A DNA stretch of 64,000 bases from Candidatus Iainarchaeum sp. GTDB taxonomy: Archaea > Iainarchaeota > Iainarchaeia > Iainarchaeales > JAGVWC01. The translations under genes and the position numbers were made by a program. Positions 24,964-57,755 of this stretch are shown here, in pieces. The stretch spans positions 127,211 through 191,210 of the forward strand of contig JAGVWC010000010.1 in NCBI GenBank assembly GCA_018304465.1, read 5' to 3'. Below the pieces are notes generated by a model, which was given only the letters and a program-made list of their open reading frames with translations, ran no database searches and had not been told where the DNA came from. The number at the start of each line of letters is the position of its first letter. The stretch's first letter is position 1.

Positions 24964-24972
24964 AAAGGCTGT

Positions 24973-28993: not shown

Positions 28994-28994
28994 G

Positions 28995-32488: not shown

Positions 32489-32622
32489 CACGATCGGTAA
32501 AACCCGTGTAAAACGGCGCTCATACCTAATAAATCGATTTTTAATATGTTTGAATAAACAAGTCATATTCTTAGGACCCTATCAACATCCATTCCACCCA
32601 CCGTTTTTTCGAGTGAAAACCA

Positions 32623-34565: not shown

Positions 34566-34586
34566 AATAAAAACGGAAAATCCATT

Positions 34587-35798: not shown

Positions 35799-35820
35799 CT
35801 TTTTAAAACCCGAAGAACCA

Positions 35821-36306: not shown

Positions 36307-36334
36307 ATAGAACAAAGACCCACAGGTTTCAATC

Positions 36335-36856
36335 ATGAAAAAACCGAACAAGCTCTACTTCGAGGACCTGCCGCAGGACATCCGACAATCCATCCGAGAA
36401 ATCGTTTCCCACCGGAACCGAATCCGACACTTTACAGACGATTTTTTAGTTATCAGCGGAGTGGCCGGCGGCTTGCTGTACCTCAGCACCCGTTCGTTTC
36501 AAAACGGACATCCCACAACAGGAATCATTACCGGTATTGCCGCGTCAATTCCGGCTAAAATAGTCGGAACCGCCCTTGCGGACCATGAACAGGAACATTA
36601 CCGCGAAGCATTATCGCTCCAGCACCGATTAACTAATTCCACAGACCCGAACGTCCAAGCCTTGTGTCAGCGCTTCCCTTATATCATCGTGACCAATAGC
36701 TTTGATCTGGTCGGAAAACGATTCGCTCCACGCATCGGATTCATCCCCATTGGAAGACGCCGGATTCCGACTCGAAAACCAGTGCCAAAACCGAGGCTGC
36801 CCTTTCCACGAACAAGACGAAGAATCCGAAAACGGATCCAGAAACGATTCCATTGA
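36335..36856 (+). CDS. Hypothetical protein, paralog B of the tandem pair
   Basis: FEDLP...DPNVQALCQRFPYIIVTNSFDLVGKRFAPRIGFIPIGRRRIPTRKP followed by an Arg/Lys/Pro-rich tail. Confidence 0.5.
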   Translation: MKKPNKLYFEDLPQDIRQSIREIVSHRNRIRHFTDDFLVISGVAGGLLYLSTRSFQNGHPTTGIITGIAASIPAKIVGTALADHEQEHYREALSLQHRLTNSTDPNVQALCQRFPYIIVTNSFDLVGKRFAPRIGFIPIGRRRIPTRKPVPKPRLPFPRTRRRIRKRIQKRFH

Positions 36857-37046
36857 TAAAAAAAAAACAGTAAAAAAAAGTGCGGGCCCTCAGAGTTGAG
36901 TTATTTCGTCATCTTCCTTTCGGAATCCAAAGGTGTTAACGTCCGCATTCGGCCCGCATACAAATTCCCCCCAAACAGGTTTTTAACTGCATGCAAAGCC
37001 GCATTTTGAATATTCATACAATGCCAAGGAAAAGCGAAAAGGAACA

Positions 37047-37649
37047 TCAGTTTTCTTTTTTTTCGCTTGGAATCGCGACCGAAACCGACACCGGCACCTT
37101 GGGTGGTTTTCGGATTCCGAGCGTAATTTCGGTTTCTTTGGGATTTATTTTTTTCTTCCGGGCTTTTTTTCTGCGCTTGGGCTTTTTCTTCAACTGGTCT
37201 TTTGGAACGAATTCCAACAAGGTTCCATCCGGAATATCCAAACCGATTTTGGCCACGATCTCGACGCTTCCACGGCTACCGGACGACAAGCGCTGGGCTT
37301 TCTGCAAGCCTTCCTGAATCGCCTTGATCGAAATCAATTCTCCGTTATAGACCGCCACCATGCCTTTTTGCAAGACCCCGGACAAAACCTTGCCGTTTAC
37401 CACAAACAAAGGCAAGAGCTTAAACGACGTTGAAACCAAAAAACGGTTTTTTTGACCCGCCAGTGGAACCAACTGTTTTTTTTTCCGTTTTTGATCCGAC
37501 GAAACCGCGGTATTCAAATCCGATTCTTCAATCGCTTCTTCCAAAGGGGTTTTTTCGCCTTTTAACACCAAGGATTGCCTGATCTTTTCCTCGACTTCTT
37601 CCGGTGTATACCGATACTTAGGCCGTTTTAAAAAATCCAATAACCCCAT
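37047..37649 (-). CDS. Hypothetical protein with a possible EF-Tu-domain-2-like beta-barrel and Lys-rich C-terminus
   Basis: GKVLSGVLQKGMVAVYNGELISIKAIQ loosely resembles translation-factor beta-barrels; the ATG at 37649 is preferred over the 37736 start. Confidence 0.35.
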   Translation of the reverse strand: MGLLDFLKRPKYRYTPEEVEEKIRQSLVLKGEKTPLEEAIEESDLNTAVSSDQKRKKKQLVPLAGQKNRFLVSTSFKLLPLFVVNGKVLSGVLQKGMVAVYNGELISIKAIQEGLQKAQRLSSGSRGSVEIVAKIGLDIPDGTLLEFVPKDQLKKKPKRRKKARKKKINPKETEITLGIRKPPKVPVSVSVAIPSEKKEN

Positions 37650-37808
37650 CGAAGACCCATACAAAAAACAGTTCCGATCTATATAAACCAAACGGATCGA
37701 AGCGGAAAACGCCTTCCAAAACCCAAAAAAACCCAAAAAAACCGTTAAACCCCGTTTTTTTGAGAATCAAAGATCGAAATCGCAAAAAAAAGAGGTTCCG
37801 AGAACGAC

Positions 37809-38507
37809 TCATTTTCGGGCAAAAACGCATTTTTTTCTCAAAAAACAGGGTTCACACGCCGGCGTGACCCGGCAAAATTCTTTGGCATGACGAACAATCA
37901 ACGCGTGAAAATCCGAAAAAATTTCGGAGTCCGTCGGAACACCTTTCATCAAAAAGGATTGACACGCATCATAATCCATTGTTTTTCCGAACACCCGCTG
38001 CACCAACCGCCGCGAATACGCATCCACCACGAGCACGGAATGCCCCCCCGCGTACAACAGCATGGAATCCGCGGTTTCAGGACCGATGCCATGCAACGAA
38101 AGCAATTCTTTTCGAACGATTAACAACGGTCGCGACAACAAGCGTTCCACGGACCCGTGGTTTTTTTTGACGTGACCACAAAACCGTTTCAAGCGATCCG
38201 CTTTCTGATTGAAAAAACCCGCGGAACGAATCAAACCCCCTAATTTTTTCGAATTCATTGCCGACAACGCATCCAGATCCAACACCCGGCGACGCTTGAG
38301 ATTGGCCAAAGCTTTTTCGGCATTCGACCACGCGGCATTCTGGGTCAACATCGCCCCGACACAGATTTCAAGGCGCTGCGCCTCGGTCAACTCCAGCCGT
38401 TTCTTGTACGATGCCGGACCCAAGGGTTCATCCGAAACCGGCCACCAGCCTTGAGCACTAAACCGATGTTGCAGCAAACCAAACAAGGCAAACGAATCCA
38501 AAGACAT
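37809..38507 (-). CDS. HhH-GPD family DNA glycosylase (endonuclease III-like) with C-terminal 4Fe-4S Cys cluster
   Basis: HhH motif LLSLHGIGPETADSML; C-terminal Cys cluster C..ACEPCFLRKKC; ATG at 38507. Confidence 0.75.
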   Translation of the reverse strand: MSLDSFALFGLLQHRFSAQGWWPVSDEPLGPASYKKRLELTEAQRLEICVGAMLTQNAAWSNAEKALANLKRRRVLDLDALSAMNSKKLGGLIRSAGFFNQKADRLKRFCGHVKKNHGSVERLLSRPLLIVRKELLSLHGIGPETADSMLLYAGGHSVLVVDAYSRRLVQRVFGKTMDYDACQSFLMKGVPTDSEIFSDFHALIVRHAKEFCRVTPACEPCFLRKKCVFARK

Positions 38508-38541
38508 GCAAAAAAAAGAGTCGAAAAAAATAAATGACAAT

Positions 38542-39297
38542 CTATTCGAGCCGGATGCCGGTTTCCGTGATTTCAAACGGGTGCGCGAACAAATCGATTT
38601 TGGTCAAACGCATCTTCAAAATCGCAAGCGTTCTGCGAACCGCGGTTCCGACACTGCCGATTCGAAGCAACAAAATACCGTCGCACAAAAACTCGCTGAT
38701 GGTATCCCGCGTCAACCCGCCTTGATTTCCCGGGCTTTCCACGCGCTCGCTGGTCAAGAGAATCGTGGAATTCGATTGGCCCAAGGCCTTGAAAATGCTT
38801 TTCAAACGCAAACGGTTCATGTTCAACGGATCCATCGCAAATACCTTGGACTCTTCCTTAAACGAAAGATTCGACGGCGACACGGGATTAGAAGTAATCG
38901 AATCCAAGGAATCCAAACACACCACATCGTACTGTGAATTCTTCAGTTCCAAAAGCAAAAAATTCACGAGATTCGGATCATCCGCATCCAGGGACAAAAG
39001 CTTTAGGTTCTTGGCTTTTTTGGGATCCCAGCCAAACTGAATCATCTGGCTTTCGATCCGCGAACTATTCTGCTCCAGATTCAAATACAAGCATTTTTTT
39101 CCTTCCATCGCGTTAAAATACAGAATCTGGGAACACAAAATCGATTTTCCCACTCCCGGCGTACCCGCAACCAAAATCACGTGGCCTTTGGGAAAACCGC
39201 CTTGAATCAATTTGTCCATTCCAGGAACAAACGTTTTGACACGCTCAAAAGCATCCGGCACAAAAGCAACCCGTACCATACCTAACGCAAAACGCAT
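38542..39297 (-). CDS. KaiC/RadA-like RecA-superfamily ATPase (single domain)
   Basis: GGFPKGHVILVAGTPGVGKS Walker A in a KaiC-like context; Walker B VVCLDSLD; ~245 aa. Confidence 0.75.
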   Translation of the reverse strand: MRFALGMVRVAFVPDAFERVKTFVPGMDKLIQGGFPKGHVILVAGTPGVGKSILCSQILYFNAMEGKKCLYLNLEQNSSRIESQMIQFGWDPKKAKNLKLLSLDADDPNLVNFLLLELKNSQYDVVCLDSLDSITSNPVSPSNLSFKEESKVFAMDPLNMNRLRLKSIFKALGQSNSTILLTSERVESPGNQGGLTRDTISEFLCDGILLLRIGSVGTAVRRTLAILKMRLTKIDLFAHPFEITETGIRLE

Positions 39298-39392
39298 ATA
39301 TAAACAATGAGGTTGTTTGTTTCACCGGCAATGCACTCACTGCGGCGATGGATTAAACAGCTTCTTTTTCCCCAACTATTCCAGGGATACGG

Positions 39393-39632
39393 ATGGAGGA
39401 AAAAGAAAACATCATCACGCTGGTTTTGATGTCGATTCAAAAACTGGTTTTTCGCGACAAATTGGCAAGCACGTTCGTATTCACTGGCGTCATCCTGTTG
39501 CTAGGCGCGTTTTTTCTGGCGCGATCCGAAATCGGACAAAACATCGGCGCCACGTACATGATGATCACCGGATTGATGCTTGCATTGCTCGGCTTATACA
39601 GCCAACACCCAACCAAGAAAAACAAACGATAA
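39393..39632 (+). CDS. Small hypothetical membrane protein
   Basis: 79 aa with two hydrophobic helices. Confidence 0.3.
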   Translation: MEEKENIITLVLMSIQKLVFRDKLASTFVFTGVILLLGAFFLARSEIGQNIGATYMMITGLMLALLGLYSQHPTKKNKR

Positions 39633-39651
39633 AAAAAAGAGATGAATCGAC

Positions 39652-39885
39652 TTAGGAACACGAAACCACAATGTCGCTAAATCGCGATCCGTCGGGACAC
39701 CCCTGCGGAAGATCGCAATACTCGATATTGACGGTGCCCCACGGCTTGTCGGAGTCCCGGCAAATTCGAACCGCGGGATTTTCCTGCGTCGAATACACGT
39801 ATCCGAAGAAGCCGCCCAACACCAAACCGATCAGCAGCACCAAAACCAACAAAAAACGCACATCCATCATGTTGAAAAAAAGCAT
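39652..39885 (-). CDS. Small secreted/anchored Cys-containing protein
   Basis: MMDVRFLLVLVLLIGLVLGGFFGY followed by a Cys-containing soluble tail (CRDSD..YCDLPQGCPDG..SCS). The track ORF start at 40077 overlaps the opposite-strand gene, so an internal ATG (39885, or alternatively 39870) is preferred. Confidence 0.3.
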   Translation of the reverse strand: MLFFNMMDVRFLLVLVLLIGLVLGGFFGYVYSTQENPAVRICRDSDKPWGTVNIEYCDLPQGCPDGSRFSDIVVSCS

Positions 39886-39961
39886 CTTTAGGCTTTTAAT
39901 CGTATCGATGGAAAACAGCCACAAAAAACCATTTAAAATTGTTCGAATCCGAATATGAGCC

Positions 39962-40645
39962 ATGAACAATGCGGAATTAAACAAAAAAATGGTCCGCCAC
40001 AGCCGAACCCTTACGTACATTCTGGCCGCCTTTTTGCTGGTCGCGTTGTTTTTGAAGAATTCTGTTTCAAAAACCACGGATTATTCAAACCTTGCCAGTG
40101 AACTTGGAATCCTGTCGTTTATCTTCATCAGCCTGGCTTTAAGCGTCACCCCCATCCGAACCTTGTTTCCCGCGTTTGTGTTTAACGGCACGATTTTTTT
40201 TGCCCGACGCGCGATTGGAGTCTCAAGCTTTGCTTTTGCAGCCCTGCATTTTTCCCTGCAATTCGTTTTTTTCTTCGGAAGCAGTCTTGACGCCTTGTTT
40301 TTGTTTAACCAAAACGCGTCGAACGCGATTTTTTTCGGAATCGTTTCGGCCTTGATTTTGTTTTTCATGACGATTACGTCCACGGACTGGGCGGTTGCAA
40401 AACTCGGCAAAAACTGGTTTTTGCTTCACCGATTCGTTTACCTTGCGTACCCCCTGATCATTCTCCACGCGGTTCTCATCGGATCCGATTTCACACGGCT
40501 TTCATTTCTCTCAGGAGTGTTCCTGTTGGCGGCCGCGCTTACCATTATTTTGGAAGCCGCGCGACTGAACAAAACTCTTCGGCAAAAAACCATTTCCATC
40601 AACCCAAAACCCGAACCGGAAAAACCCCCAAAACGAAACCCATAA
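39962..40645 (+). CDS. Polytopic membrane protein, ferric-reductase-like TM domain (YedZ/MsrQ-like) candidate
   Basis: Six TM helices with conserved His in helices (ALHFSLQ, ILHAVLIG). Assignment is tentative. Confidence 0.4.
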   Translation: MNNAELNKKMVRHSRTLTYILAAFLLVALFLKNSVSKTTDYSNLASELGILSFIFISLALSVTPIRTLFPAFVFNGTIFFARRAIGVSSFAFAALHFSLQFVFFFGSSLDALFLFNQNASNAIFFGIVSALILFFMTITSTDWAVAKLGKNWFLLHRFVYLAYPLIILHAVLIGSDFTRLSFLSGVFLLAAALTIILEAARLNKTLRQKTISINPKPEPEKPPKRNP

Positions 40646-40658
40646 TAATCCGAAATAC

Positions 40659-41183
40659 GTGATCGATAGAATGACCAAAGCGAATTTTCAAATCGAGCGC
40701 GAACCCATCTGGGCTGGATGGTGCCCTATTCACAGCGGCGTTCCACCCGCGTTTGACGCCGGCGGATACGTGTGCACCAAATGCCGAAAAACGGTTTGCG
40801 CCGCCTGCATTTACACTACGAACATCGGCATCATCTGCCAAAACTGCGTTCGCACTTCCAAACACGCCGTCACCGAAGCCACGTCGCTTTATCCCCAACA
40901 AAAAATTTCCGACAAAGACCGCGTCGGAATCGCGCGAATCGAAATCCTGTTGTTTTTGGCCTTGACTGTGGTCGCGGCGGCTATTTCGGTGCTGAGCGTT
41001 TTTAACGAACCCAATCATTTTTTCGTAATACCCATTCTGTACGGCGCCATTGTGACACTCGTGATCGCGTACGCCGCGATGTTCATCAAAAATTACCTGG
41101 ATAAAACCAGGGCCAAGGAAATTTCGCTTACGTCGGACGAAAAAAAAGAACTCGAACGCTTGTCCAATCCGAAAAAGAAATGA
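40659..41183 (+). CDS. Zinc-ribbon plus 2-TM membrane protein
   Basis: Cys pairs WCPIH...CTKCRKTVCAACIYTTNIGIICQNC, then two TM helices and a charged C-terminus. Confidence 0.45.
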   Translation: MIDRMTKANFQIEREPIWAGWCPIHSGVPPAFDAGGYVCTKCRKTVCAACIYTTNIGIICQNCVRTSKHAVTEATSLYPQQKISDKDRVGIARIEILLFLALTVVAAAISVLSVFNEPNHFFVIPILYGAIVTLVIAYAAMFIKNYLDKTRAKEISLTSDEKKELERLSNPKKK

Positions 41184-41284
41184 TTTTCCGAAACTGACCG
41201 GCAAATCACCCCCGTTTTACCGGCAACACACCGCTTCCAAACCTTAAAAGCAACTCGCCGCGTTATCCCTATCCGGGGAAAACA

Positions 41285-41797
41285 ATGGACGAAAAAGAAC
41301 TGATTATTTATTCGAATCCAACGAACGCGAACGCCGCGCACTTCGCATTGATCAAAGCCATCGAAGACGCGCACCACGGATGCGTGTTGTTTGTCGACTG
41401 CATTAACGGGTTTGATCCGTACCAAGTGCTTAAACTCTGCGCAAACCCGCCGCAAGCGCGCCAGATTCTTCACAACGTGCTCGTGTCACGCCCGTTCACG
41501 TTTCATCAGTTCAAACGATTGCTTGACACCGAACTCGCATCCACGTTCGACCGGCACCAGGGACGCGCCGTCATTATTTTGGGTTACACCAATTTGTTTT
41601 TGGATTCCGATGTCGCGGAAGAAGAACGCCTCGCGGTGCTTGGCACCGCCACCAAAAAACTCCACAGCCTCGTGATCGAACACCCGTTGCCCGTCCAAGT
41701 CATGCTCTCCGAAAACGCGTATTCCGAACTCGTACGGGGGTGGCTGGATGGGGCGGACCGTACCGTCGTTTCGACAAGTCGTGGGAAACGAATATAG
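41285..41797 (+). CDS. Hypothetical protein, possibly a Walker-A-less RecA/KaiC-like fold
   Basis: A beta-loop-alpha-beta pattern (LIIYSNPTNANAAHFALIKAIEDAHHGCVLFVD) resembles the RecA core but lacks the GxxGxGKT loop. Speculative. Confidence 0.35.
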   Translation: MDEKELIIYSNPTNANAAHFALIKAIEDAHHGCVLFVDCINGFDPYQVLKLCANPPQARQILHNVLVSRPFTFHQFKRLLDTELASTFDRHQGRAVIILGYTNLFLDSDVAEEERLAVLGTATKKLHSLVIEHPLPVQVMLSENAYSELVRGWLDGADRTVVSTSRGKRI

Positions 41798-41983
41798 CAC
41801 ACTGGAAAAATACTGTAAAGCGCTGCGAAAACAAGACGGAGAACTACTTCGCGAATTGATTCTATCCGCACGCATGCACACGCACGCCGCCGGATACGCG
41901 GGCTTTCTGGATCCCATGCAAGCAATACTTCTCGGAATGCTGCTTGAACAAGAGAAAAAAATAAAAGAAATCGAAAAACGGAA

Positions 41984-42343
41984 ATGATTCAAGTGAACAT
42001 CGTTATTCACCGGAAACAAACCCGCTTAGATGGAAGCGCACACGATTTTTTGTTTACGACCGTATATGTCGATGTTTCGGAAAGAAATCCGCGCCTGGTG
42101 GACTTTAGCGTGTCCCAATTCCTTTTTCTTGACCAAAAACACGCGGTGATCCGCTTCGATTGTGCACACGGGTATCTGAATGTCCATCGTTTTTTTGAAT
42201 CAAAAACGAATCGCACGGATTACCAGGACCAAGTTCCAAGCGCCGAACTGTATGAGCAATGCAAAAAAGATATTCATTCAAATTGGACGGAATACCGGGA
42301 AAAATACCTAAAAAAATGGAAAACAAAACACCACTTTATATAA
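41984..42343 (+). CDS. Hypothetical protein, downstream member of an overlapping two-gene module
   Basis: 119 aa; start overlaps the stop of the 41748..41987 ORF (ATGA). Confidence 0.3.
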   Translation: MIQVNIVIHRKQTRLDGSAHDFLFTTVYVDVSERNPRLVDFSVSQFLFLDQKHAVIRFDCAHGYLNVHRFFESKTNRTDYQDQVPSAELYEQCKKDIHSNWTEYREKYLKKWKTKHHFI

Positions 42344-42359
42344 CATTAGGAGTTATATT

Positions 42360-42734
42360 ATGTGCGGGCTTGAAATGAAAAAAAAACTGACCATCAAAAT
42401 CGGCGGCGACATGGACGCGGACGACCGCGAACTATTAACCAATATCAAGAAAGCCCGCCGACCCTCGCACACCCTTTACCTGGACTCGATCGAGCAACTG
42501 CACGCGCTTTTATCCCCCAAAAAAATCCATATTCTCAAAAGCCTGCTCGAAAACGATGACAATCCAACGGTTTCAGAACTCGCCAAAAAAACAAACCGAA
42601 AACAAGAAGCCATCAGCCGCGACATCCACGACCTTTGCGACCGCAACCTGGTTCGCCTGGAAAAAAAAGGGCAGCGCGTGCATGCAAAAACAAATTACGA
42701 CAAAATCGTGATCGAAATCCCGCTTGCCCGCTAA
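42360..42734 (+). CDS. Winged-helix transcriptional regulator
   Basis: HTH segment TVSELAKKTNRKQEAISRDIHDLCDRNLV, then wing VRLEKKGQRVHAKTNYDKIV. Confidence 0.5.
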   Translation: MCGLEMKKKLTIKIGGDMDADDRELLTNIKKARRPSHTLYLDSIEQLHALLSPKKIHILKSLLENDDNPTVSELAKKTNRKQEAISRDIHDLCDRNLVRLEKKGQRVHAKTNYDKIVIEIPLAR

Positions 42735-42769
42735 ACCGATTTAAAAACTCTTGTTGGGAATATCACGGT

Positions 42770-43606
42770 ATGCCAAAAGTCCTTATTACAGGGGCCAGCA
42801 GTTATGTCGGAGCCCGCTTGTATGCCGATCTTCGGAAAAAATTCGACGTCACCGGAACGTACCATTCGACCCCGCTGTTTCCAGAGCTTGTCAAACTGGA
42901 TGTCACCAATTCCGGCGAAGTCCAGGAAACGGTTTTCAGGCTAAAACCGGATTTTGTCGTGCATGTTGCCGCGAATCCTTCCGCAAAATGGTGCGAAGAA
43001 AACCCGACACTTGCCAAAAAACTCAACGAAGACGGAACCCAGAACGTGGTCGATGCGGCAAATCGAATCCACGCGAAAGTCATTTACATGTCTTCGGTTG
43101 CCGCCAAAAAGCCGTCCAGCCTATATGGAAAAACAAAAGGCGAAGGCGAAAAAATCGCTGTCCAAACCAAAGCAGGATACGTTATTCTGCGCCCATCGCT
43201 TATCATCGGATTCAGCCCGAACACGGTAAACGACCGCGCATACAACCGCTTGCTCAAAAACATCATGGAAAAAACCCCCGCAGTTTACGACACGTCGTGG
43301 AAATTCCGGCCCACTTGGATCGGACACATTTCCGAGATCATCGAAAAAGTGATCGACCGCAACATCACCGGTGAAACGATTCCCATTCTGGTTCCGACAT
43401 TAAAATCTCGGTTCGACATCGCAAAAGACCTTCTTACGGCGTTTGGCATTCAGGCAGCCCCAAAAGACCTTAACGACACAACTCCAGCCGACTCCGAAGA
43501 TCTGGACAAGCTCCGCCAATTGGATCTTCCCCAGTATACGTACCCAGAGATCCTTGAAAAGATAATCCGCGAAACAAAAGACTATCTCCAAAGTATCCGA
43601 TCGTAA
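42770..43606 (+). CDS. NAD(P)-dependent epimerase/dehydratase family protein (dTDP-4-dehydrorhamnose reductase RmlD-like)
   Basis: N-terminal Rossmann KVLITGASSYVGARL; YxxxK-type region (SLYGKTK); ATG at 42770. Confidence 0.7.
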   Translation: MPKVLITGASSYVGARLYADLRKKFDVTGTYHSTPLFPELVKLDVTNSGEVQETVFRLKPDFVVHVAANPSAKWCEENPTLAKKLNEDGTQNVVDAANRIHAKVIYMSSVAAKKPSSLYGKTKGEGEKIAVQTKAGYVILRPSLIIGFSPNTVNDRAYNRLLKNIMEKTPAVYDTSWKFRPTWIGHISEIIEKVIDRNITGETIPILVPTLKSRFDIAKDLLTAFGIQAAPKDLNDTTPADSEDLDKLRQLDLPQYTYPEILEKIIRETKDYLQSIRS

Positions 43607-43678
43607 CGAATACATTTCACCGGCAATCCACCCTCTTTTCGTTAAAGAACCCCCGCTAACCTTTTCGTACGGAATCCC

Positions 43679-45928
43679 ATGCACGGCACTTTAATCGATG
43701 TTTTTTCGGACAAAAACGAACTCGTCCTCTGGATCCGGTACGGAACCCAGAATCTGTTCCTGAGGGACGCCTACAAACCCGTTTTTTTCATCCAAAGCCG
43801 CGAACACGACTTGATTTCGATCGCCGACACCATTTCAACCGAATTTCCAGGCGACGACTATGTCATCCGGCTCGTGAAAAAACGGGATTTTGACACGAAC
43901 CGATTGCAAGACGCCTTGCAAGTGCAAGTCAAAGATTTTCGAAAACGAAGCAAACTCGTTCGGTTTTTGAACACCGAATACCAATTCGAATCCAATCTGT
44001 TTCATGCCGACCTATCCGTGGAACAACTATACTTGTTCGAAAAAAACCTCCGGCCATTGCAAGACGTGGAATTCGGCGTGCAAGGCAAACGAATATGGTT
44101 TTTGCAGCCCTTAAAATTCCAGGCATTCACCGACGAGTTTCCCGCTTTTACCCACGTAACCGTGGAAGCGATTCCGAAAGGCGACGTACGGCAAACCAAC
44201 GAAATCGCGCTTGAAGCGATGCGTTTAGACGAACAATTTTTCCGCGGAAGCGAAGACGAAATTCTTTTGCAATTCAAGAATGCGTACGAAAAAAAAGATC
44301 CTGACATCGTGCTGTCTGTTTCCGGAAACAAATGGATGCTCGAATATGTCAAACAACGCTTTCTTTTTCACCGGATTCCGTTCGAATGGGGCCGGTTTTC
44401 CGACAAAGCCGGCGGAAAACCCAGTTCGTATTTTTCCTACGGACAAATCATTCGCCGGGACCTCAGCCATTTTTTGTGCGGACGACTGCACATCGACACC
44501 AGCGGTTTTCATTTCAAGGAATGCGGACTCGACGGCGTGCTCGAAATGGCGTACACCACGGCGATGCCCGTGCAAAAAGCCGGCTTCAAAAGCTCCGGTT
44601 CGTGCATTTCGAATTTGCAGTTGTTTTACGCCTACCAGCAAGGATACCTGATTCCCGACCGGAAAAACCAGGTGGAAAAATTCGACTCGGGCTGGCACTT
44701 GTTTGAAGTCGACAAAGGCGGCATGGTATTCGAACCCAGAATCGGATTGCACGAAAACGTCGTCGAGCTCGATTTTTCCAGTTTGTATCCCTCGATCATG
44801 GTCGAACACAATATTTCACCCGAAACCGTGTTATGCCATTGCTGCGACAACGACGTGGTGCCCGAATGTCATTACAACATCTGCGAAAAACGCCGCGGAC
44901 TGATTCCGATCGTACTCAAACCCGTGCTGGAAAGACGATTGTACTTCAAGCGCATGAAAAGCATGACGAAAGGAAAAGAACGCGAAACCTACAAACAAAA
45001 AGCCAACGCCCTCAAATGGCTGCTCGTAACATCGTTTGGCTATACGGGATACAAAAACGCGCGTTTTGGACGCATCGAATGCCACGAAGCCATTTGCGCG
45101 TATTCGCGCGAAAAACTCCTTTCCGCCGCCCGAATATGCGAAGACGCCGGTTTTGAAGTACTGCACGCCATCGTGGATTCCGTCTACATAACCAAGCCCG
45201 GATTTTCGCTTGACGACCTCTCCGCACTGATCAACACCATCACCGAAAAAACCCGGGTCGAAATCGTTCTTGAAGGAATATTCAATTGGATCGTGTTCGT
45301 TCCGTCTCGACGCGATCACCGCATCGCCACCCCCACCCGTTTTTACGGAGTATACCAAAACGGGGAAGCCAAGCTCCGCGGACTCGAAATCCGGCGACGC
45401 GATTCCCCCACCGCCATTAAAAAAATGCAATCCGAACAAATCGCGATTCTTTCCAAAGCGACCGACAAAACCTTGTTTGAAAAACAAATTCCCAAAGTCA
45501 AGCGCAAAATGAAAGAATGGATCCAAAAACTCCACAACGGCTTGATCCCCTTCGAAGAACTCGTGATCACCAAACGCGTGTCAAAACCGCTTTCGAAATA
45601 CCGCGGCACCAACGCCCAAAAAACCGTGTTGACGCAACTGGCCCGCCGCGGAATCGAAATACACCCCGGGGAAAAAATACGTTTTCTTTATACCAAAACC
45701 GATTCGTCACAACCCGAAAAACGCGTCACGGCGTATTCAAACCAAACGCCGCCGGTTACGGTCGATCACAAAAAATACGAAGAATTATTCGTCAACGCGA
45801 CGTGGGAATTACTGCATTTTAACGGAACCAAAAAAGAAGAATTATTCGAAACGCTTTTTGACCAACAACAGACAAAACTCAACGCGTTTTCAGAAACGAA
45901 ACCCGCGAAAATGAGCCGACATGGATAA
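43679..45928 (+). CDS. polB: Family B DNA polymerase, with apparently degenerate exonuclease motifs
   Basis: Motif A DFSSLYPSIM, motif-B-like K..LLVTSFGYTGY, motif-C region HAIVDSVY; 749 aa. Confidence 0.85.
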   Translation: MHGTLIDVFSDKNELVLWIRYGTQNLFLRDAYKPVFFIQSREHDLISIADTISTEFPGDDYVIRLVKKRDFDTNRLQDALQVQVKDFRKRSKLVRFLNTEYQFESNLFHADLSVEQLYLFEKNLRPLQDVEFGVQGKRIWFLQPLKFQAFTDEFPAFTHVTVEAIPKGDVRQTNEIALEAMRLDEQFFRGSEDEILLQFKNAYEKKDPDIVLSVSGNKWMLEYVKQRFLFHRIPFEWGRFSDKAGGKPSSYFSYGQIIRRDLSHFLCGRLHIDTSGFHFKECGLDGVLEMAYTTAMPVQKAGFKSSGSCISNLQLFYAYQQGYLIPDRKNQVEKFDSGWHLFEVDKGGMVFEPRIGLHENVVELDFSSLYPSIMVEHNISPETVLCHCCDNDVVPECHYNICEKRRGLIPIVLKPVLERRLYFKRMKSMTKGKERETYKQKANALKWLLVTSFGYTGYKNARFGRIECHEAICAYSREKLLSAARICEDAGFEVLHAIVDSVYITKPGFSLDDLSALINTITEKTRVEIVLEGIFNWIVFVPSRRDHRIATPTRFYGVYQNGEAKLRGLEIRRRDSPTAIKKMQSEQIAILSKATDKTLFEKQIPKVKRKMKEWIQKLHNGLIPFEELVITKRVSKPLSKYRGTNAQKTVLTQLARRGIEIHPGEKIRFLYTKTDSSQPEKRVTAYSNQTPPVTVDHKKYEELFVNATWELLHFNGTKKEELFETLFDQQQTKLNAFSETKPAKMSRHG

Positions 45929-46248
45929 CGGTCGGTTTCCACAAAGCCCCAACAATTCGCTCATTTTTTTCACCCATCACCGGTTACCAACAATAGGAAA
46001 TGAACCCCCTACTATTTGTTTTGGAATGCGTTTTTGGAGGGGAAAAAAAACCAAAAACAAGCACCGAAAACATTTAAAAAACAATTATAAGTTAATTATA
46101 GTTCTGGTGAAGTGCTTGAAAAACGACTCTTCGCGCATCGAACTATATTTTTTCATCACATTGGTCGCCATGCTCATCGTCGCCTTTTCCGCGCAATCCA
46201 AAACCCAAAACGGCTCCTTTAAAGAAAATATCGAATCCAATTCACTCC

Positions 46249-47529
46249 ATGAACCACTGGTGGGAAATTCCGAAACACCAAACCAGCCGCAACAACCAAT
46301 TGTGGATTGCGAACCAAAAAGCGACGCGACTCGCGAAACAATTCCAAACACCGTTATTTGTCTACAACGCAAATCGAATCCGTGAAAATTACCGGCGTCT
46401 CTGCGAAGCGTTTGACGCCACTGGGGCGCCGTATTCCATTCATTACGCCATGAAAGCGAACCCGCATCCCGCGATTCTTGCGCTTCTTCGAAAACTCGGC
46501 GCAAGAATCGACGCGGTTTCCCCAAACGAAGTGCGACTGGCCAAACAAACCGGGTTTTCACCCGAAAAAATTTTTTTCACCGGAACCAGCGTCAGCAACG
46601 ACGACTTGACCGAATTAATCGCATCCGGCGTCCTGATCAATATCGATTCGTTTTCTCAGATGCGTCGCCTGACCGAAAAAAAATTCGACGGAAACGCGTC
46701 GATTCGATGGAACCCCGGAACTGGCGCGGGAATCCACGACCACACCATCACCGGAGGAAAATTCATCAAATTCGGAATCCCCGAAAAATTCATCCTCAAA
46801 GCGTTTCAAACCGCGCGAACAAACGGCCTTTGTGTCGTGGGCCTTCATCAGCACATCGGCTCCGGTTGGCTTGGAAACGACGTTCAAAAATTCCTTAAAA
46901 CCGTCGAAAAAACGATTTCGGTCGGGAAAAAAGCCGAAAAAATCCTTTCAAAACCCCTTGAATTTATCGACTTTGGCGGCGGCCCCGGCATCCGGTACCA
47001 AGAAAAACAAACCGATTTCCCCATTGAAAAATACGCGCAAGGCATCGCAAACGCCATGAAAAAAAACAGCTTGAATTGCCCCGTCGTGATCGAACCCGGA
47101 CGATTCATCGTTGGCGACGCCGGAATTCTGCTGACCGAAGTCAACACAGTGGAAACCAAAAACATTCCCGTGATCGGAGTCAACGCGGGATTCAACGCAT
47201 TGATTCGTCCGGCGTTTTACGGCGCGTACCACGAAATCGTCAACGCGAACCGCCTGCACACCCCCGTTAAAGTGGCCAGTATGGTGGCAGGAAACCTCTG
47301 TGAAAGCGGAGACGTCTTTAACACCGACAAGTATTCTCTTCGAAAACTCCCCAAAACCCGCGAAGGCGACATCTTAGCCATCTTAAACGCCGGCGCCTAC
47401 GGGCGGGCCATGGCCTCCAATTACAACCTGCGCGAACGCCCCGCAGAAATCCTGATCGACGAAAAAAAAACCCGCGTGATCACGCGCAAAGAAACATTCC
47501 GACAACTCATTCAAAACCAAAAACCCTAA
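46249..47529 (+). CDS. PLP-dependent group IV decarboxylase (diaminopimelate / ornithine / carboxynorspermidine decarboxylase family)
   Basis: YAMKANPHPAILALL (PLP-binding Lys), an EPGR-like motif (EPGRFIVGDAG), and a C-terminal beta-sandwich domain. Confidence 0.8.
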   Translation: MNHWWEIPKHQTSRNNQLWIANQKATRLAKQFQTPLFVYNANRIRENYRRLCEAFDATGAPYSIHYAMKANPHPAILALLRKLGARIDAVSPNEVRLAKQTGFSPEKIFFTGTSVSNDDLTELIASGVLINIDSFSQMRRLTEKKFDGNASIRWNPGTGAGIHDHTITGGKFIKFGIPEKFILKAFQTARTNGLCVVGLHQHIGSGWLGNDVQKFLKTVEKTISVGKKAEKILSKPLEFIDFGGGPGIRYQEKQTDFPIEKYAQGIANAMKKNSLNCPVVIEPGRFIVGDAGILLTEVNTVETKNIPVIGVNAGFNALIRPAFYGAYHEIVNANRLHTPVKVASMVAGNLCESGDVFNTDKYSLRKLPKTREGDILAILNAGAYGRAMASNYNLRERPAEILIDEKKTRVITRKETFRQLIQNQKP

Positions 47530-47561
47530 AAGCGAACTTTTTTATTACGAAACCGCGTGTA

Positions 47562-48284
47562 ATGGATATGCAACGATTTTTGGCGCTCATATTATTTGGA
47601 ACGCTGTTATTTGGCTGCGTTTCCAACTCGTCGCTTTCCGCCCCCGACCAGTCTCCGCCCACGCTACGCGCGATTTTACGCAACACGCTAAATGTCACGG
47701 ATTATTCCATGCTACCCGAACACGCCGTAAACGAGACTGTGCAAATCAACGAAATTGAAATCAAACCGTTGCGCATTGAAACGTTTTTTTCAGAGGAATC
47801 CCAGATCACAACCGCAGTCGAAAACAAACCCGAAACAGAATCCAGTGAAATGCGACTCGTGCTGGTCGTCCTCAAACTCACCAATCATTCGAACACGGTT
47901 TATTCCTTTGACCCCGCATCATGGGTGGTCACACCCAACGCATTTTCGTTTGAATCCAATGAAGCACCCGAAAACCGGTTTTTGGAATCAAAAGGACCGA
48001 TACGCCCAAACGAAACCAAAAAATTCGTTTTTTTCATCCGACAACCCACCGCGGGTCCGGCGAACATCGTTTTTTCATTGAACCCCACGGCTTCGAACCC
48101 TTCCCCCGAACCGACAATTGTCAAATACGGCTTTTGGCTTCCGACCGAATACACGTTTCTTTCGGTTGAAAAACTATTCGAAGAAAGCTGCAAAAAAAAC
48201 GCGGAAAACACCCGCGGATGCCAGGTATTCAAAAACACGTTTGGAAACGAATGCGCGGACGGACAAATCCGACGCGCCTGCTGA
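47562..48284 (+). CDS. Hypothetical secreted (lipoprotein-like) protein
   Basis: Signal peptide with LFGC lipobox-like motif MDMQRFLALILFGTLLFGCVSNSS. Confidence 0.45.
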   Translation: MDMQRFLALILFGTLLFGCVSNSSLSAPDQSPPTLRAILRNTLNVTDYSMLPEHAVNETVQINEIEIKPLRIETFFSEESQITTAVENKPETESSEMRLVLVVLKLTNHSNTVYSFDPASWVVTPNAFSFESNEAPENRFLESKGPIRPNETKKFVFFIRQPTAGPANIVFSLNPTASNPSPEPTIVKYGFWLPTEYTFLSVEKLFEESCKKNAENTRGCQVFKNTFGNECADGQIRRAC

Positions 48285-48333
48285 ATTTTCGCCACCTCAA
48301 GCTTTTTTAATCCCCGTTTCCTTTTATTAGCAC

Positions 48334-48810
48334 ATGCCCAAATTGCGCGTCGGAATATTTTCGTTTACCGGAGACGAAGGCTGCGTCATTACTTTTTTGG
48401 AAATACTAAACACCAAGTTTTTCGAATGGATCGAAAAAGTAGATTTCGTCAATGTCCGCGTCCTCCAAAAAAAAGTCTCGATGGAAAACATTGACGTTGC
48501 GTTCGTGGAAGGCGCGATTTCAACCGAAAAAGAAGTCGCCAAACTCAAGGAAATCCGCCAAAACAGCAAAAAAGTCGTGGCGATCGGAAGTTGCGCCATC
48601 AGCGGAGCCCCCAGCAACCACCGCAACCTATTTGACGAAAAAACCCGGCTTGAAATCCTTCCGATTCTCGAGCGATTTCATCACCGCGAAAAAGTCGTTC
48701 CGCTTTCAAACCTCATCCTTGTCGACGACCAGGTTCCGGGGTGTCCGATCATCGAGGAAAAATTCATCGAAGTCATGGAAAAATACGTCAAAGAAATGGG
48801 AGGAAACTAA
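48334..48810 (+). CDS. [NiFe]-hydrogenase small subunit, short HoxY/delta-like form (proximal 4Fe-4S only)
   Basis: Cys ligands GDEGCV, GSCAISG and PGCP; 158 aa. Confidence 0.75.
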   Translation: MPKLRVGIFSFTGDEGCVITFLEILNTKFFEWIEKVDFVNVRVLQKKVSMENIDVAFVEGAISTEKEVAKLKEIRQNSKKVVAIGSCAISGAPSNHRNLFDEKTRLEILPILERFHHREKVVPLSNLILVDDQVPGCPIIEEKFIEVMEKYVKEMGGN

Positions 48811-50112
48811 ATGTCCCACACGCACGATTTAGACATCACGATTGACCAAATATCCAAAATCGAAGGACACGCCGAAATCTCGGTTACGGTCCGAAACGGC
48901 GAAGTCACCGACGTCAAACTCAAAATCAACGAAAACAAACGATTTTACACGCAAGCCGTCCGCGGAAAACCCTTCGTTTCCGTTCCCCAACTCGTCAGCC
49001 GCATTTGCGGCACGTGTTCGGTTGCCCACCTCAACGGTTCCATCATGGCGCTCGAAAACGGACTTGGACTTTCGCCTTCTCCGCAAGACCAACTGCTTCG
49101 CGAACTCTCCATGCACGGCCTCATGGTCCGCGATCACGCCATGCACCTGTATTTTTTCTGCCTGCCAGATGAAATGAACGCCGATTCCGTCATGGAACTC
49201 GCCAAAACCAATCACGACCTCGTGCACGAAGCGTTTCACGTCAAAGGCGCCGGAAACGCGCTTTCCCGCCTGGTGCTTGGACGCGCGGTCCACGGATTAT
49301 TCGCCCAAGTCGGCTACTACTCCCAAACTCCAAGCAAAGAACAGATTAACGAAGTGATCAAAGAACTCAAAGAAAACCGAGACGCCGCCTTGCGATTATG
49401 CGAAATATTTTATAATTCCAAATTCGAATTCGAACGCACCACCAATTTCGTTTCCTTGGTCGGAGAACGCTTTGATTACCTCACAGGAGAAATCCATTCG
49501 AGTTTGGGACTCTGCATTTCGCCTCAAATGTACCGAAAACACCTTGATCACGTCGTCAAGCCGTATTCCCAAGCGTCCGCGTACGCACTGGAAGGAAAAG
49601 ACTACATGACCGGCGCGTTACCGCGACTCAACATGATCAAAGACAAACTGCATCCCGACACCCAAAAATCCTGCCACGAATACCTTAAGGTATTCCCCTC
49701 CAAAAACATTTTCCACAACAACCTGGCGCAAGCCATCGAAATCGTTCATGGCATCGACCGATCCGTCGAAATACTCGAAACCAACGAATTCAAAGCCGAT
49801 ACCAAACCCGCATTGATACCCAAAAAATCCGACGGCATCGGATTGTTGGAAGCCCCCCGCGGAAACCTGTATTACTTGTTGTCCACCGACGAACAAGGAC
49901 ACGTCACGTTTGCCGACATCATCACCCCCAGTTCCCAAAACCAAATCAACATGGAAAACGACTTGCGCAAACTCATCAGAGGAAACCTCGACAAAAGCCG
50001 CGAAGAAATCGAATTCGAAATGGAAAAACTCATCCGCGCATACGATCCCTGTTTTTCCTGCGCGAGCCACTTTCTGAAAGTCAAATGGAACGGACAAAAA
50101 CCGGCGAAATAA
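48811..50112 (+). CDS. [NiFe]-hydrogenase large subunit (groups 1-3 type, cytoplasmic group-3-like)
   Basis: N-terminal L1 motif RICGTCSVAH; C-terminal L2 motif DPCFSCASH followed by a short cleavable extension. Confidence 0.85.
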   Translation: MSHTHDLDITIDQISKIEGHAEISVTVRNGEVTDVKLKINENKRFYTQAVRGKPFVSVPQLVSRICGTCSVAHLNGSIMALENGLGLSPSPQDQLLRELSMHGLMVRDHAMHLYFFCLPDEMNADSVMELAKTNHDLVHEAFHVKGAGNALSRLVLGRAVHGLFAQVGYYSQTPSKEQINEVIKELKENRDAALRLCEIFYNSKFEFERTTNFVSLVGERFDYLTGEIHSSLGLCISPQMYRKHLDHVVKPYSQASAYALEGKDYMTGALPRLNMIKDKLHPDTQKSCHEYLKVFPSKNIFHNNLAQAIEIVHGIDRSVEILETNEFKADTKPALIPKKSDGIGLLEAPRGNLYYLLSTDEQGHVTFADIITPSSQNQINMENDLRKLIRGNLDKSREEIEFEMEKLIRAYDPCFSCASHFLKVKWNGQKPAK

Positions 50113-50130
50113 ATGTCCAATCCGGGGACG

Positions 50131-50523
50131 TTAAGCCCGTTCCATCGCTTCAATCACCGGAACGATTTCGGAAAACGCTTTTTTGGCGGGGTATGTCATC
50201 GGGATCCCGATGATGTTAACGGTTTTCAACAACCCCATCGCTTTCAATAGTTTCAAACTCTGACCCAAATCAAAATCGTGCATGGAAAACCGTTTCGTGT
50301 TCTCGAACGAATCGATATCCGTCAACACCGATACTTTTTCAATTCCTTCCACAGCGTCCAGAATCGTCAAATCCGAGCCTTCTTTTTCGAGGTCTTCGAC
50401 CGCGTCAAACTCGACAAACGCGATTGTTGGAAACCGTTTTCGAAGAAGCGGCAAAATTTTCAAAGCAATTGAATCTTCCGCGACCAACGGGTTTCCAAAC
50501 ACCAAAATCCGCACTGTTCCCAC
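50131..50523 (-). CDS. Hydrogenase maturation endopeptidase (HycI/HoxW-like)
   Basis: 130 aa, N-terminal VRILVFGNPLVAEDSIALKIL, typical of the small hydrogenase proteases; convergent with the large subunit gene. Confidence 0.65.
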   Translation of the reverse strand: MGTVRILVFGNPLVAEDSIALKILPLLRKRFPTIAFVEFDAVEDLEKEGSDLTILDAVEGIEKVSVLTDIDSFENTKRFSMHDFDLGQSLKLLKAMGLLKTVNIIGIPMTYPAKKAFSEIVPVIEAMERA

Positions 50524-50577
50524 TGAAAGGGATTACGCGGCATCGGTTTAAAAAACAAACGAGCTTTTTTCTATCGA

Positions 50578-51501
50578 ATGGCCGGACCCAATCCCCGACT
50601 AGGCACCCTCCTTGTTTTGATTACCGCGTTATCCAGCGGAATCGCGATTTTTCTCAACAAATACTCGATCGCAAGCTTTGACAACGCCTTCGTGTTCACG
50701 TTCCTCAAAAACGCATTGGTCGCCGCCGTACTGCTGGGATTTATTTTTCTTTTCCATAAACGAAAAACCCTCGAATCAATGCGGCTCAAAGAATGGGGCG
50801 CGTTGATTTTAATCGGGTTGATCGGAGGCGCCGCCGCGTTCGCGATTTATTTTTACGCGCTCAAAACCGCCAATGGTCTTGCCGCGGGACTTTTGCACAA
50901 AACCCTTTTCGTTTGGGCAGGCGCACTCGCCGTGATCGCGCTCAAGGAAAAAATCGACAAACGATTCCTCGTTGCCGCCGGACTCATCGTTACTGGCAAC
51001 CTGTTGCTTTTTAGCGGAAACCTGTCATTTGGATTATCCGAAGGATTGATACTCGTCGCGGTATTGCTTTGGGCCGTTGAAAACATGCTGGCCAAACGAC
51101 TCCTCAATCAAAATCAACACCTGGACGGTTTAACAGTGGGCTTTGGACGCATGTTTTTCGGAGCCTTGTTTTTGTTTGGATTACTGGTTTTTACCGGTGA
51201 CGTTTCCGGAATCGGTTCGCTTTCCTTTGACCACTGGCAATGGATCGCCCTCACCGGCCTTTTTTTGGTGGTCTACGTGGCCACGTATTACGTGGGACTC
51301 GAACACATTCCATTGCATCAAGCCGCCGCGTTATTGGCGTTCGGACAACCCGTGACCGCAGTACTCACGTTTTTTTTCGTGGGAAAAACGCCGCTCCTGC
51401 CTGAAGCCGTCGGATTATTGCTTTTAGTGCTGGGCACGCTTTTTATCGCATTGGCTTCTTTTTGGAACCAATCCCACTCCCAACCGGTGCTGGCCGGGTG
51501 A
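50578..51501 (+). CDS. EamA/DMT-family transporter
   Basis: 307 aa, ten TM helices arranged as two EamA-like repeats. Confidence 0.7.
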   Translation: MAGPNPRLGTLLVLITALSSGIAIFLNKYSIASFDNAFVFTFLKNALVAAVLLGFIFLFHKRKTLESMRLKEWGALILIGLIGGAAAFAIYFYALKTANGLAAGLLHKTLFVWAGALAVIALKEKIDKRFLVAAGLIVTGNLLLFSGNLSFGLSEGLILVAVLLWAVENMLAKRLLNQNQHLDGLTVGFGRMFFGALFLFGLLVFTGDVSGIGSLSFDHWQWIALTGLFLVVYVATYYVGLEHIPLHQAAALLAFGQPVTAVLTFFFVGKTPLLPEAVGLLLLVLGTLFIALASFWNQSHSQPVLAG

Positions 51502-51505
51502 GCCG

Positions 51506-52231
51506 TTGCAGGGAATCGAATTACTGGTTCGCCATTCGTTTGCCCCTAACCGGTTGCATTATTGCGGAGACGACGATTATTCAAGCCGCATCCAGCAGTT
51601 TATCCAAAGCCGCGATCCCACGCTTGGACAAACCCTCAAAAAAGAGTACACGACGTTTCGAGCCGCTTTCGGATACGTTAAAACCATTGCCGAATCGGTT
51701 CAAAAAAACCCGTTTGATTTCGAAGTCGCGGAAGCCTACTGGATCGGAAACGCGTTACTGGACCACGTTTCCTCCGACATCCTTTCGAAATTGTTCTTAA
51801 CCCGTTTTTCAGCGGGAGAATACCTGGGAAGCGAACTTGCCGCGGAAATGGCCGCCCAACTTCCAGCCAAAATCTATCCGCATCATTCGTTTCACGTGCT
51901 ATACCTGCATTTTTTGAGCGGCAAAGTCCCCGTCACACTGCCCAACATCAACCATTGCCTGATTTTGCCCGCAAAAGTGCTGGATGTATCCCCCGGAAAA
52001 CTGACGGTGGAAAAAAAGCCATTTGAAATTCATAACGGCGATTTTCGGATTGGAAAACCCGTTCACCAGGAAATAGACCGGTTTTTTTCCGATCCCATAC
52101 AAACCGGGGATTGGGTTTCGGTCCACTGGAACACGTATTGCATGACGCTTACCCCCCTTCAAAAAGAAAACTTGGAAAAATACACCGCGGCCAATTTGGC
52201 TTTGCTTAACGCCGCTTCGATTTTTTCTTAA
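51506..52231 (+). CDS. Hypothetical protein
   Basis: 241 aa, no motif recognised; its 3' end overlaps the convergent HypC gene by ~26 nt. Confidence 0.35.
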   Translation: MQGIELLVRHSFAPNRLHYCGDDDYSSRIQQFIQSRDPTLGQTLKKEYTTFRAAFGYVKTIAESVQKNPFDFEVAEAYWIGNALLDHVSSDILSKLFLTRFSAGEYLGSELAAEMAAQLPAKIYPHHSFHVLYLHFLSGKVPVTLPNINHCLILPAKVLDVSPGKLTVEKKPFEIHNGDFRIGKPVHQEIDRFFSDPIQTGDWVSVHWNTYCMTLTPLQKENLEKYTAANLALLNAASIFS

Positions 52232-52430
52232 TTCGCCCCGACAAAATCGTCGCCATTTCTTTTGCCGCTTTTTCTTCCAATCGCTCGACCACGCTGTTCT
52301 GCCACACCAGGACAAAATCGCCTTTCTTGGCTGCCACCGTGTTCAGTACTTTTCGACGCACCCGGCCGATTCGAACCACGGCAAAAACGTCGTCCAGTTC
52401 CTCGATTTTTCCCGGAATCCCAAGGCACAT
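52206..52430 (-). CDS. hypC: Hydrogenase assembly chaperone HypC/HupF
   Basis: Begins MCLGIPGKI (canonical MC(L/I)(A/G)IP); ~75 aa from the ATG at 52430; the track ORF is over-extended. Confidence 0.6.
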   Translation of the reverse strand: MCLGIPGKIEELDDVFAVVRIGRVRRKVLNTVAAKKGDFVLVWQNSVVERLEEKAAKEMATILSGRIKKKSKRR

Positions 52431-52713
52431 GCACACACAACAACCACGATAGAGAATAAAAAATCGGCGCACCAAAGCGAAAAAAAGCGCATAGGTTTAA
52501 AATGAGTTTTTATAATTCAATTATAGATTACGTTTTTTTCACCGAAGGAACCCAATATGCAGACCAAAAACACGAACCACAAAGTCGTTCACTTGCGTCT
52601 CGAACCGTTTTTTTTTCAATTCACCAGTATCCCGGGGGAAATCACCAAACAAACGACCGTTGGCCAAAAAGCCGAACGAAACAAAACAAACACAAAGGAG
52701 GAGGAAAAAACGA

Positions 52714-54336: not shown

Positions 54337-54434
54337 CGGAAAAAAAACCCTTTCGGGGGAACTATTTCTTTTTTTAACGAAAGTCAAATCCGAGCATACC
54401 TATAAATTCGGATTTTCTCTTTTTTTTATCCGTT

Positions 54435-57692: not shown

Positions 57693-57755
57693 ATGATTAG
57701 GATACTAATCATTAGGCACCAAACACTATTAAAATCCCTCTTCGAAACGAAAAAA

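Follow-up and report, generated by a model that had tools for sequence, protein, structure and literature searches.

A PolB2-group DNA polymerase with predicted mutasome partner genes in a Diapherotrites archaeon

What kind of enzyme is a family B DNA polymerase whose exonuclease motifs and polymerase motif C both depart from the canonical sequences? The question is raised by a gene at 43679..45928 (+) in a 64,000-nucleotide stretch of contig JAGVWC010000010.1, referred to here as the window. The original prediction, made from the letters alone, read its product as a proofreading-deficient and possibly catalytically atypical PolB, which could be a replicative polymerase relying on another exonuclease or an inactivated paralogue. 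Our analysis indicates that the 749-aa product is very probably a polymerase of the PolB2 group (Dpo2 type), the catalytic subunit of an iRadA–PPB2–PolB2 translesion mutasome in a Candidatus Diapherotrites host. The earlier observation was correct and its interpretation partly right; the PolB2 family and the partner genes had not been recognised. Degenerate PolB motifs of this kind are a conserved PolB2 signature and are not to be read as pseudogenisation or as the mark of an unusual replicase.

Assignment of the protein to family B is far beyond chance, because Pfam DNA_pol_B matches residues 309–681 with an E value of 1.4e-37 and PolB structures in the PDB are matched at E = 4e-48 with the single sequence and at 2.5e-92 with a family profile. 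The single-sequence matches to PolB3 and PolB1 structures are significant over the polymerase domain only. An AlphaFold2 model was built on a 36-sequence alignment (mean pLDDT 89, pTM 0.85). In Foldseek, it superposes over its full length on the KOD, 9°N and P. abyssi PolB structures (TM ~0.75). Pfam, the model and Foldseek together show the family B architecture of N-terminal, exo-like, palm, fingers and thumb domains. Family signatures complete the assignment to the Dpo2 type (see below). The identical gene was called on 10 contigs of public metagenome assemblies, and the protein database holds thousands of homologues.

Conservation was counted in an alignment of 36 sequences with 34–49% identity to the query. 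Motif A, DFSSLYPSIM (residues 365–374; 44771..44800, +), located by the family alignment, is canonical, as originally stated. It includes the catalytic Asp D365 and the steric gate Y370; D365, S368, Y370, P371 and M374 are invariant in 36/36 sequences. Motif B, KWLLVTSFGY (446–455; 45014..45043, +), was aligned to KILANSLYG. The Lys is kept as K446, with V450 in place of the Asn and F453 in place of the Tyr. Thus the motif B Asn is indeed lost, as had been proposed, but not to the Thr then named, because it aligns to V450 and not to T451. K446, W447, F453 and G454 are found in all 36 sequences and V450 in 35. The family-wide replacement of Asn by Val and of Tyr by Phe plausibly relaxes contacts around the nascent base pair. 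Motif C, HAIVDS (496–501; 45164..45181, +), was aligned to YSDTDG. It fits HxxxD and diverges from YGDTDS just as the original prediction had it: I498 stands where the first Asp would be, and the second is retained as D500. H496 and D500 occur in 36/36 sequences; the first-Asp column is filled by Ile, Leu, Tyr or Met, never by Asp. PolB2 therefore retains the metal-binding D365 and D500, the triphosphate-binding K446 and the steric-gate Y370, and the invariance of D365, Y370, K446, H496 and D500 points to purifying selection on catalytic residues.

In the AlphaFold2 model, which has a full PolB fold, the vestigial exonuclease lobe is kept as a folded domain without an active site, since the superposition on KOD, 9°N and P. 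abyssi PolB extends over the full length. The Pfam exo1 domain scores 13.7 bits on PolB2, under the gathering threshold of 23. For Exo I, a weak, low-confidence pairwise HMMER alignment with P. abyssi PolB puts D-I-E opposite K146-F-Q148; the equivalent segment, L145-K-F-Q148 (44111..44122, +), has no DxE, and no acidic column is conserved in this region among the 36 family sequences. The Exo I Asp had been reported as lost from FTHVTVEAI (157–165). The loss holds, as the acidic residues are missing in either placement, but the placement does not: FTHVTVEAI was rejected as Exo I and is probably the β-strand that follows it in the HMMER alignment. HMMER and the family alignment identify an Exo II remnant, DPDIVLSVSGNKWMLEYV (207–224; 44297..44350, +). 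Within it, SGNKWMLEYV (215–224) lies opposite NGDNFDFPYL of Thermococcales PolB, with S215 at the Asn position and M220 at that of the catalytic Asp, which confirms the degeneracy seen earlier. Only 3 of the 36 sequences have Asp in the catalytic Asp column; most have Leu, Ala or Ile there. Of Exo III, a shortened segment is left: residues 270–353 of P. abyssi PolB (~84 residues), which we take to be the stretch holding Exo III, correspond to ~38 family-profile positions. In the single helix replacing this region lies F277-x-x-x-E281 (44507..44521), with Phe in 36/36 and Glu in 35/36 sequences. This may be a vestige of the YxxxD motif, though the literature calls Exo III missing altogether.

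In the B2 and G2 groups, Exo I has been described as unconserved, Exo II as mutated and Exo III as missing (PMC7544198). PolB2 follows this pattern, with no DxE, NGDNFD changed to SGNKWM and a shortened Exo III. The profile alignment recovered no intact DxE, FDxxY or YxxxD and no canonical DTD motif C, and all five motifs of proofreading B1/B3 enzymes (DxE, NxxxFD, YxxxD, YxDTD and KxxxNSxYG) deviate. The predicted proofreading deficiency is thus supported by the absence of the Exo I and Exo II catalytic residues and the shortened Exo III, and characterised PolB2 members have no detectable exonuclease (PMC8764526).

These deviations are best read as the normal signature of the archaeal and bacterial PolB2 (Dpo2) family, not as decay, because HxxxD, D(K/R) and the lost Exo motifs are published PolB2 hallmarks and are conserved across the alignment. 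Mutation of motif C from YxDTD into HxxxD has been described for PolB2 (PMC8764526; also PMC7544198), and three signatures of the family, HxxxD, D(K/R) and KW.LVTSFG, are found together in the window protein. Replicative PolB3 and PolB1 enzymes (KOD, Pfu, P. abyssi and Sso Dpo1) are like it in fold (at the TM score given above), motif A and the motif B Lys, but have intact DxE, NxxxFD, YxxxD and YxDTD, all of which it lacks. The PolB2 family was described in 2008 and functionally characterised in 2020–2022, and its partner proteins were analysed in 2025. The locus leaves current understanding unchanged; that it adds a DPANN (Diapherotrites) example with mutasome partners to an already-known family is well supported.

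The partner genes lie upstream. A conserved iRadA–PPB2–PolB2 operon was described by Timinskas et al. 2025 (PMC11791011), and in the window the three genes occur in the published order on one strand, with three further genes inserted between PPB2 and PolB2. The first, iRadA (41285..41797, +; 170 aa), is identified by profile match to RadA as a minimal-core, catalytically inactivated RadA/Rad51 homologue. Its direct match to Pfam Rad51 is weak (E 0.088). A profile of this protein and 13 proteins encoded upstream of PolB2 genes matches P. furiosus RadA (4a6p) with an E value of 1.9e-14, the match beginning downstream of Walker A. In place of the P-loop GxxGxGKT stands NPTNANAAH, which contains no GK[ST], and Gly (in VIILG) replaces the Walker B Asp; iRadA is therefore an inactivated ATPase core, one without the N-terminal domain.

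PPB2 (arCOG07300, Pfam DUF8156; 41748..41987, +), a 79-aa helical PolB2 partner, starts 50 nt inside the 3′ end of iRadA and was identified by its MGRT arm, PF26485 and synteny. Its N terminus, MGRTVPSFR, has the MGRT arm described as conserved in PPB2, with the two expected arginines, Arg3 and Arg9 (PMC11791011). The PF26485/DUF8156 match comes from precomputed annotation; scans of the 79-aa protein with the Pfam and NCBIfam libraries gave noise only. Window PPB2 matches its counterpart on H. volcanii pHV4 (E 2e-11), and in 62 of the 70 loci with enough upstream sequence the gene just before PolB encodes a PPB2 homologue. Profiles built without the window sequence score iRadA at 110 bits (E 4e-33) and PPB2 at 92 bits (E 1e-27), with comparison sets found by tblastn with the window proteins, the independent evidence being position beside PolB2 genes.

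The polymerase carries a candidate contact site for both partners (44681..44716, +): F335-D-S-G338, a Rad51-type FxxA/G sequence in a predicted iRadA-binding loop, is followed by D345-K346, the D(K/R) motif, for which contact with the PPB2 arm is predicted. D(K/R) is specific to the PolB2 group and precedes motif A, within a flexible loop, and the roles of FxxA/G (iRadA binding that resembles Rad51-type oligomerisation) and D(K/R) (the PPB2 arm) come from AlphaFold complex models (PMC11791011). Upstream of DK, the family reads E-x-F-K-T-A and the window protein E333-K-F-D-S-G338. E333, D345 and K/R346 are found in 36/36 sequences, and F335 and A/G338 each in 35/36. The loop has a pLDDT of 66–73, lower than the model mean. 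D(K/R) precedes the motif C IxD by 153 residues; the distance in S. islandicus Dpo2 is 148 (253-DK-254 and 401-IID-403; PMC11791011).

At the other end of the protein, the motif pattern identifies a PIP-like (putative PCNA-binding) motif, QTKLNAFS (731–738; 45869..45892, +), in a disordered C-terminal tail with a pLDDT below 50. Of the 16 nearest alignment rows, the query among them, 11 have Q..L..[FYW] in their final 32 residues, as does P0040; the motif is missing from the remaining 19 rows, to which all bacterially labelled sequences belong. In published systems, a clamp-binding motif is carried by PolB2 or by iRadA, rarely by both (PMC11791011). The shortened iRadA of the window has no clamp motif, in agreement with this either-or pattern, and PolB2 is probably tethered to PCNA through its QTKLNAF tail.

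Taken together with work on other systems, these features suggest a mechanism. By analogy with Sulfolobus Dpo2, PolB2 would polymerise DNA without proofreading and extend mismatched or lesion-opposed primer ends. Following the published AlphaFold complexes, a PPB2 trimer and iRadA would bind the polymerase through the FxxG…DK loop. The complex would be recruited to PCNA by the polymerase's own tail, since the shortened iRadA has no clamp motif. The PolB2:iRadA:PPB2(3) heteropentamer with its PPB2 trimer is known from in silico evidence only (PMC11791011), and polymerase activity, mismatch and lesion extension and damage-inducible expression are established for Sulfolobales Dpo2 only (PMC8764526, PMC7390963).

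How closely does the window system resemble those already known? Sulfolobus Dpo2 is an experimentally characterised translesion synthesis extender polymerase (PMC8764526, PMC7390963). Compared through published descriptions rather than by direct sequence alignment, Sulfolobus/Saccharolobus Dpo2 and window PolB2 are alike in HxxxD with its invariant His, D(K/R) ~150 residues upstream, loss of the Exo active site, and linkage to a radA-like gene and an arCOG07300/PPB2 gene. In size, window PolB2 far exceeds the Sulfolobus enzyme (the smallest PolB2 known, according to its authors); it also differs in having a full-size, well-folded N-terminal/exo-like lobe, a PIP-like tail and a DPANN host.

A second comparison is with haloarchaea. 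A tblastn search of annotated plasmids matched haloarchaeal genes labelled "type B DNA-directed DNA polymerase", one of them on H. volcanii pHV4, where HVO_A0065 is a PolB2-group member near a radA-like gene (PMC7776575). The H. volcanii protein is 30% identical to window PolB2 over residues 29–722 (E 3e-85), and the two have in common, in identical or near-identical form, DRGG/DKGG, DFSSLYP, ALKWILVACFGY (the ALKW.LV..FGY pattern) and HGIVDS (H.IVDS). As in the window, iRadA-like and PPB2 genes lie upstream, PPB2 starts MGRT and the operon is interrupted. The differences are that the H. volcanii iRadA has 279 aa, against 170 aa in the window, and that its PolB2 is without a PIP-like tail.

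The bacterial G2 operons (LexA–iRadA–PPB2–PolB2) have the same three-gene order and motif set as the window, with a PolB identity of 34–37%. Unlike the window protein, their PolB2s form a clade of their own, are linked to LexA and have no PIP-like tail; they reportedly use β-clamp motifs instead (PMC11791011). E. coli Pol V (UmuD′2C–RecA) and eukaryotic Pol ζ are functional analogues only, being exonuclease-free translesion polymerases in multi-subunit complexes. Pol V includes a RecA-family protein, but is a Y-family enzyme and non-homologous to PolB2, and Pol ζ is a B-family extender of mismatches and lesions with accessory subunits different from those of PolB2.

The contexts of other homologues reproduce the published PolB2 operon. 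The locus of the closest relative is ordered 154 aa–DUF8156–PolB, that of an Altiarchaeota metagenome-assembled genome (MAG) 151 aa–DUF8156–PolB with SRAP nearby, and that of a bacterial contig LexA–217 aa–DUF8156–PolB.

The window operon departs from this arrangement by its insertion. The first inserted gene (41984..42343, +) encodes a 119-aa DUF7718 protein (Pfam PF24839, E 2e-11); the end of PPB2 and the beginning of this gene share 4 nt, and its segment has a GC content of 0.40–0.43, against 0.47–0.55 in the flanks. The second (42360..42734, +) encodes a 124-aa winged-helix regulator of the HVO_A0114/ArsR/MarR type (PF25212, E 1e-13; NCBIfam ArsR/SmtB, E 1e-9). The third (42770..43606, +), directly upstream of the polymerase gene, encodes a 278-aa RmlD-like NAD-dependent epimerase/reductase (RmlD_sub_bind, E 2e-24; Epimerase, E 4e-19) and is the neighbour that the original prediction had pointed out. 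None of the three was found in the other 83 PolB2 loci examined, and the block is a lineage-specific insertion, most likely with no role in the polymerase.

The genes all lie on one strand with gaps of 16–72 nt, and co-transcription of PolB2 with iRadA and PPB2 is possible. By eye only, TATA-like sequences are seen ~40 nt upstream of iRadA (TTAAAA) and ~35 nt upstream of PolB2 (TTAAAG). A scan of 40.6–46.4 kb for sigma-70 promoters and intrinsic terminators, a model inapplicable to archaea, gave counts not above those of shuffled sequences. In the H. volcanii pHV4 operon (NC_013966.1, 57789..62551), the insert between PPB2 and PolB2 is TnpB (of the RNA-guided endonuclease family), in place of the DUF7718, winged-helix and RmlD-like genes of the window. 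The PPB2/PolB2 junction may be a recurrent insertion point.

Several points weigh against our reading of the locus as a translesion mutasome. In the window system, the assembly of a complex, its binding to PCNA and its induction by damage all rest on inference; window PolB2 and its close relatives are known from sequence, and their activity is assigned by homology to Sulfolobus Dpo2. Identity to characterised PolB2s is low, at ~30% to the H. volcanii protein, itself known from sequence and genetics rather than biochemistry. The operon is interrupted by three unrelated genes (~1.7 kb), and iRadA–PPB2–PolB2 operons are rarely interspersed (PMC11791011). At 170 aa, iRadA is shorter than most homologues (220–280 aa), and its single-sequence AlphaFold2 model is uninformative (pLDDT 44.5). 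The placement of PolB2 rests on a midpoint-rooted distance tree without a B1/B3 outgroup. Finally, B2 is the sole PolB in 58 of 628 B2-encoding genomes (PMC7544198).

What, then, are the alternatives? The one that survives best has two parts: that the DPANN mutasome is rewired, with a 170-aa iRadA lacking the clamp motif, a polymerase-borne PCNA tail and an inserted winged-helix regulator, and, separately, that PolB2 is the sole B-family polymerase and has a role beyond translesion synthesis. We consider the two together unlikely. The inserted regulator might replace damage control of the Orc1-2/LexA type or link expression of the polymerase to another signal. The minimal iRadA, the PIP-like polymerase tail and the interrupted operon could help to map dispensable parts of the mutasome.

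Somewhat less probable still is that a reduced DPANN genome is replicated mainly by PolB2, without intrinsic proofreading and possibly with an exonuclease acting in trans. The DPANN host, the occurrence of B2 as sole PolB just mentioned, the polymerase's own PIP-like tail and the lack of another polymerase among the ten largest open reading frames of the window or the genes around the operon speak for it. However, only 64 kb of the genome are in view, PolB2 shares its locus with iRadA and PPB2, the arrangement of damage-inducible mutasome operons, and archaea outside the Crenarchaeota generally rely on PolD for replication. Moreover, characterised Dpo2 is distributive and dispensable (PMC8764526), and polB2 can be deleted in H. 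volcanii (PMC7776575). The suggestion of a replicative enzyme served by another exonuclease found no support, and the gene's position downstream of iRadA and PPB2, which are translesion mutasome partners (PMC11791011), speaks against it.

An inactivated paralogue with a structural or regulatory role is quite improbable. It would account for the loss of the first Asp of the motif C DTD, of the motif B Asn and Tyr and of all Exo catalytic residues, and inactivation was the original interpretation of this PolB family, proposed by Rogozin et al. 2008 (PMC2527604) and since overturned. Its difficulty is that D365, D500, K446 and Y370 are invariant across ~35%-identical homologues, which is hard to explain without catalysis, and that Sulfolobus Dpo2, a robust polymerase with the same HxxxD, incorporates nucleotides as efficiently as the replicase Dpo1 (PMC8764526). 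With the catalytic residues invariant and Dpo2 activity measured, this part of the original prediction is unlikely to hold. Least credible of all is that the gene is not a host repair gene but was brought in by a mobile element or a provirus, such as a casposon, a pipolin or a carrier of protein-primed PolB. The three unrelated inserted genes, the lower GC of the DUF7718 segment and the H. volcanii copy on a megaplasmid beside TnpB and IS elements lend this reading something. We rejected it because no element hallmarks were found near the locus: Cas1, an integrase, a terminal-protein gene and terminal repeats are all missing there. The surrounding genes are of the housekeeping kind, encoding a diaminopimelate/ornithine-type decarboxylase, a hydrogenase, tRNA synthetases and the DNA ligase; the same arrangement recurs on 10 contigs; and the sequence signatures match PolB2 rather than pPolB or piPolB.

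The host assigned to the PolB2 mutasome agrees with the remaining content of the window. The window is marked as archaeal by its ATP-dependent DNA ligase, RuBisCO large subunit, ProRS with ProRS-C_1 and probable intron-containing tRNA. The host is a Ca. Diapherotrites (DPANN) archaeon; a protein encoded in a MAG of this group matches the ProRS at 100% identity. In a rough distance-based neighbour-joining tree, midpoint-rooted and built without a B1/B3 outgroup or Sulfolobus Dpo2, window PolB2 and its uncultured relatives (48–50% identity) fall in an archaeal subclade beside Altiarchaeota and Micrarchaeota, one in which the PIP-like tail is conserved, and one bacterial clade stands among the archaeal PolB2s. 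Relatives among GTDB species representatives (80 loci) include none above ~42% best-segment identity and no Sulfolobales.

Two further repair-related genes lie 2–3 kb upstream of iRadA on the opposite strand: an HhH-GPD DNA glycosylase (37809..38507, −) and a 251-aa KaiC/AAA_25 RecA-superfamily ATPase (38542..39297, −). Together with the iRadA locus, they may form a small DNA-repair neighbourhood. The DNA ligase, which has all three domains (21156..23030, −), had been placed close to the polymerase; it lies ~20 kb away on the other strand, with no positional link to it.

Elsewhere in the window, an Rfam tRNA match at 24973..25090 (+) is 118 nt long, ~45 nt over a standard tRNA, and was missed by ARAGORN. 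It is probably an intron-containing archaeal tRNA, beside tRNA-Pro(GGG) at 25137..25209. A RuBisCO large-subunit homologue (9085..10470, −; Pfam E 2e-84) probably belongs to form III and acts in nucleotide salvage, and a 945-aa open reading frame (4620..7460, −) has no Pfam match at E ≤ 1e-5. Just past the PolB2 locus, [NiFe] hydrogenase small and large subunits are encoded at 48334..50112 (+) and nearby, with a HypC-family gene downstream. Finally, every 2-kb bin of the window (1..64000) has a negative GC skew (−0.05 to −0.22), and the AT skew is mostly positive, independent of gene orientation, which suggests one replichore or a strong strand bias.

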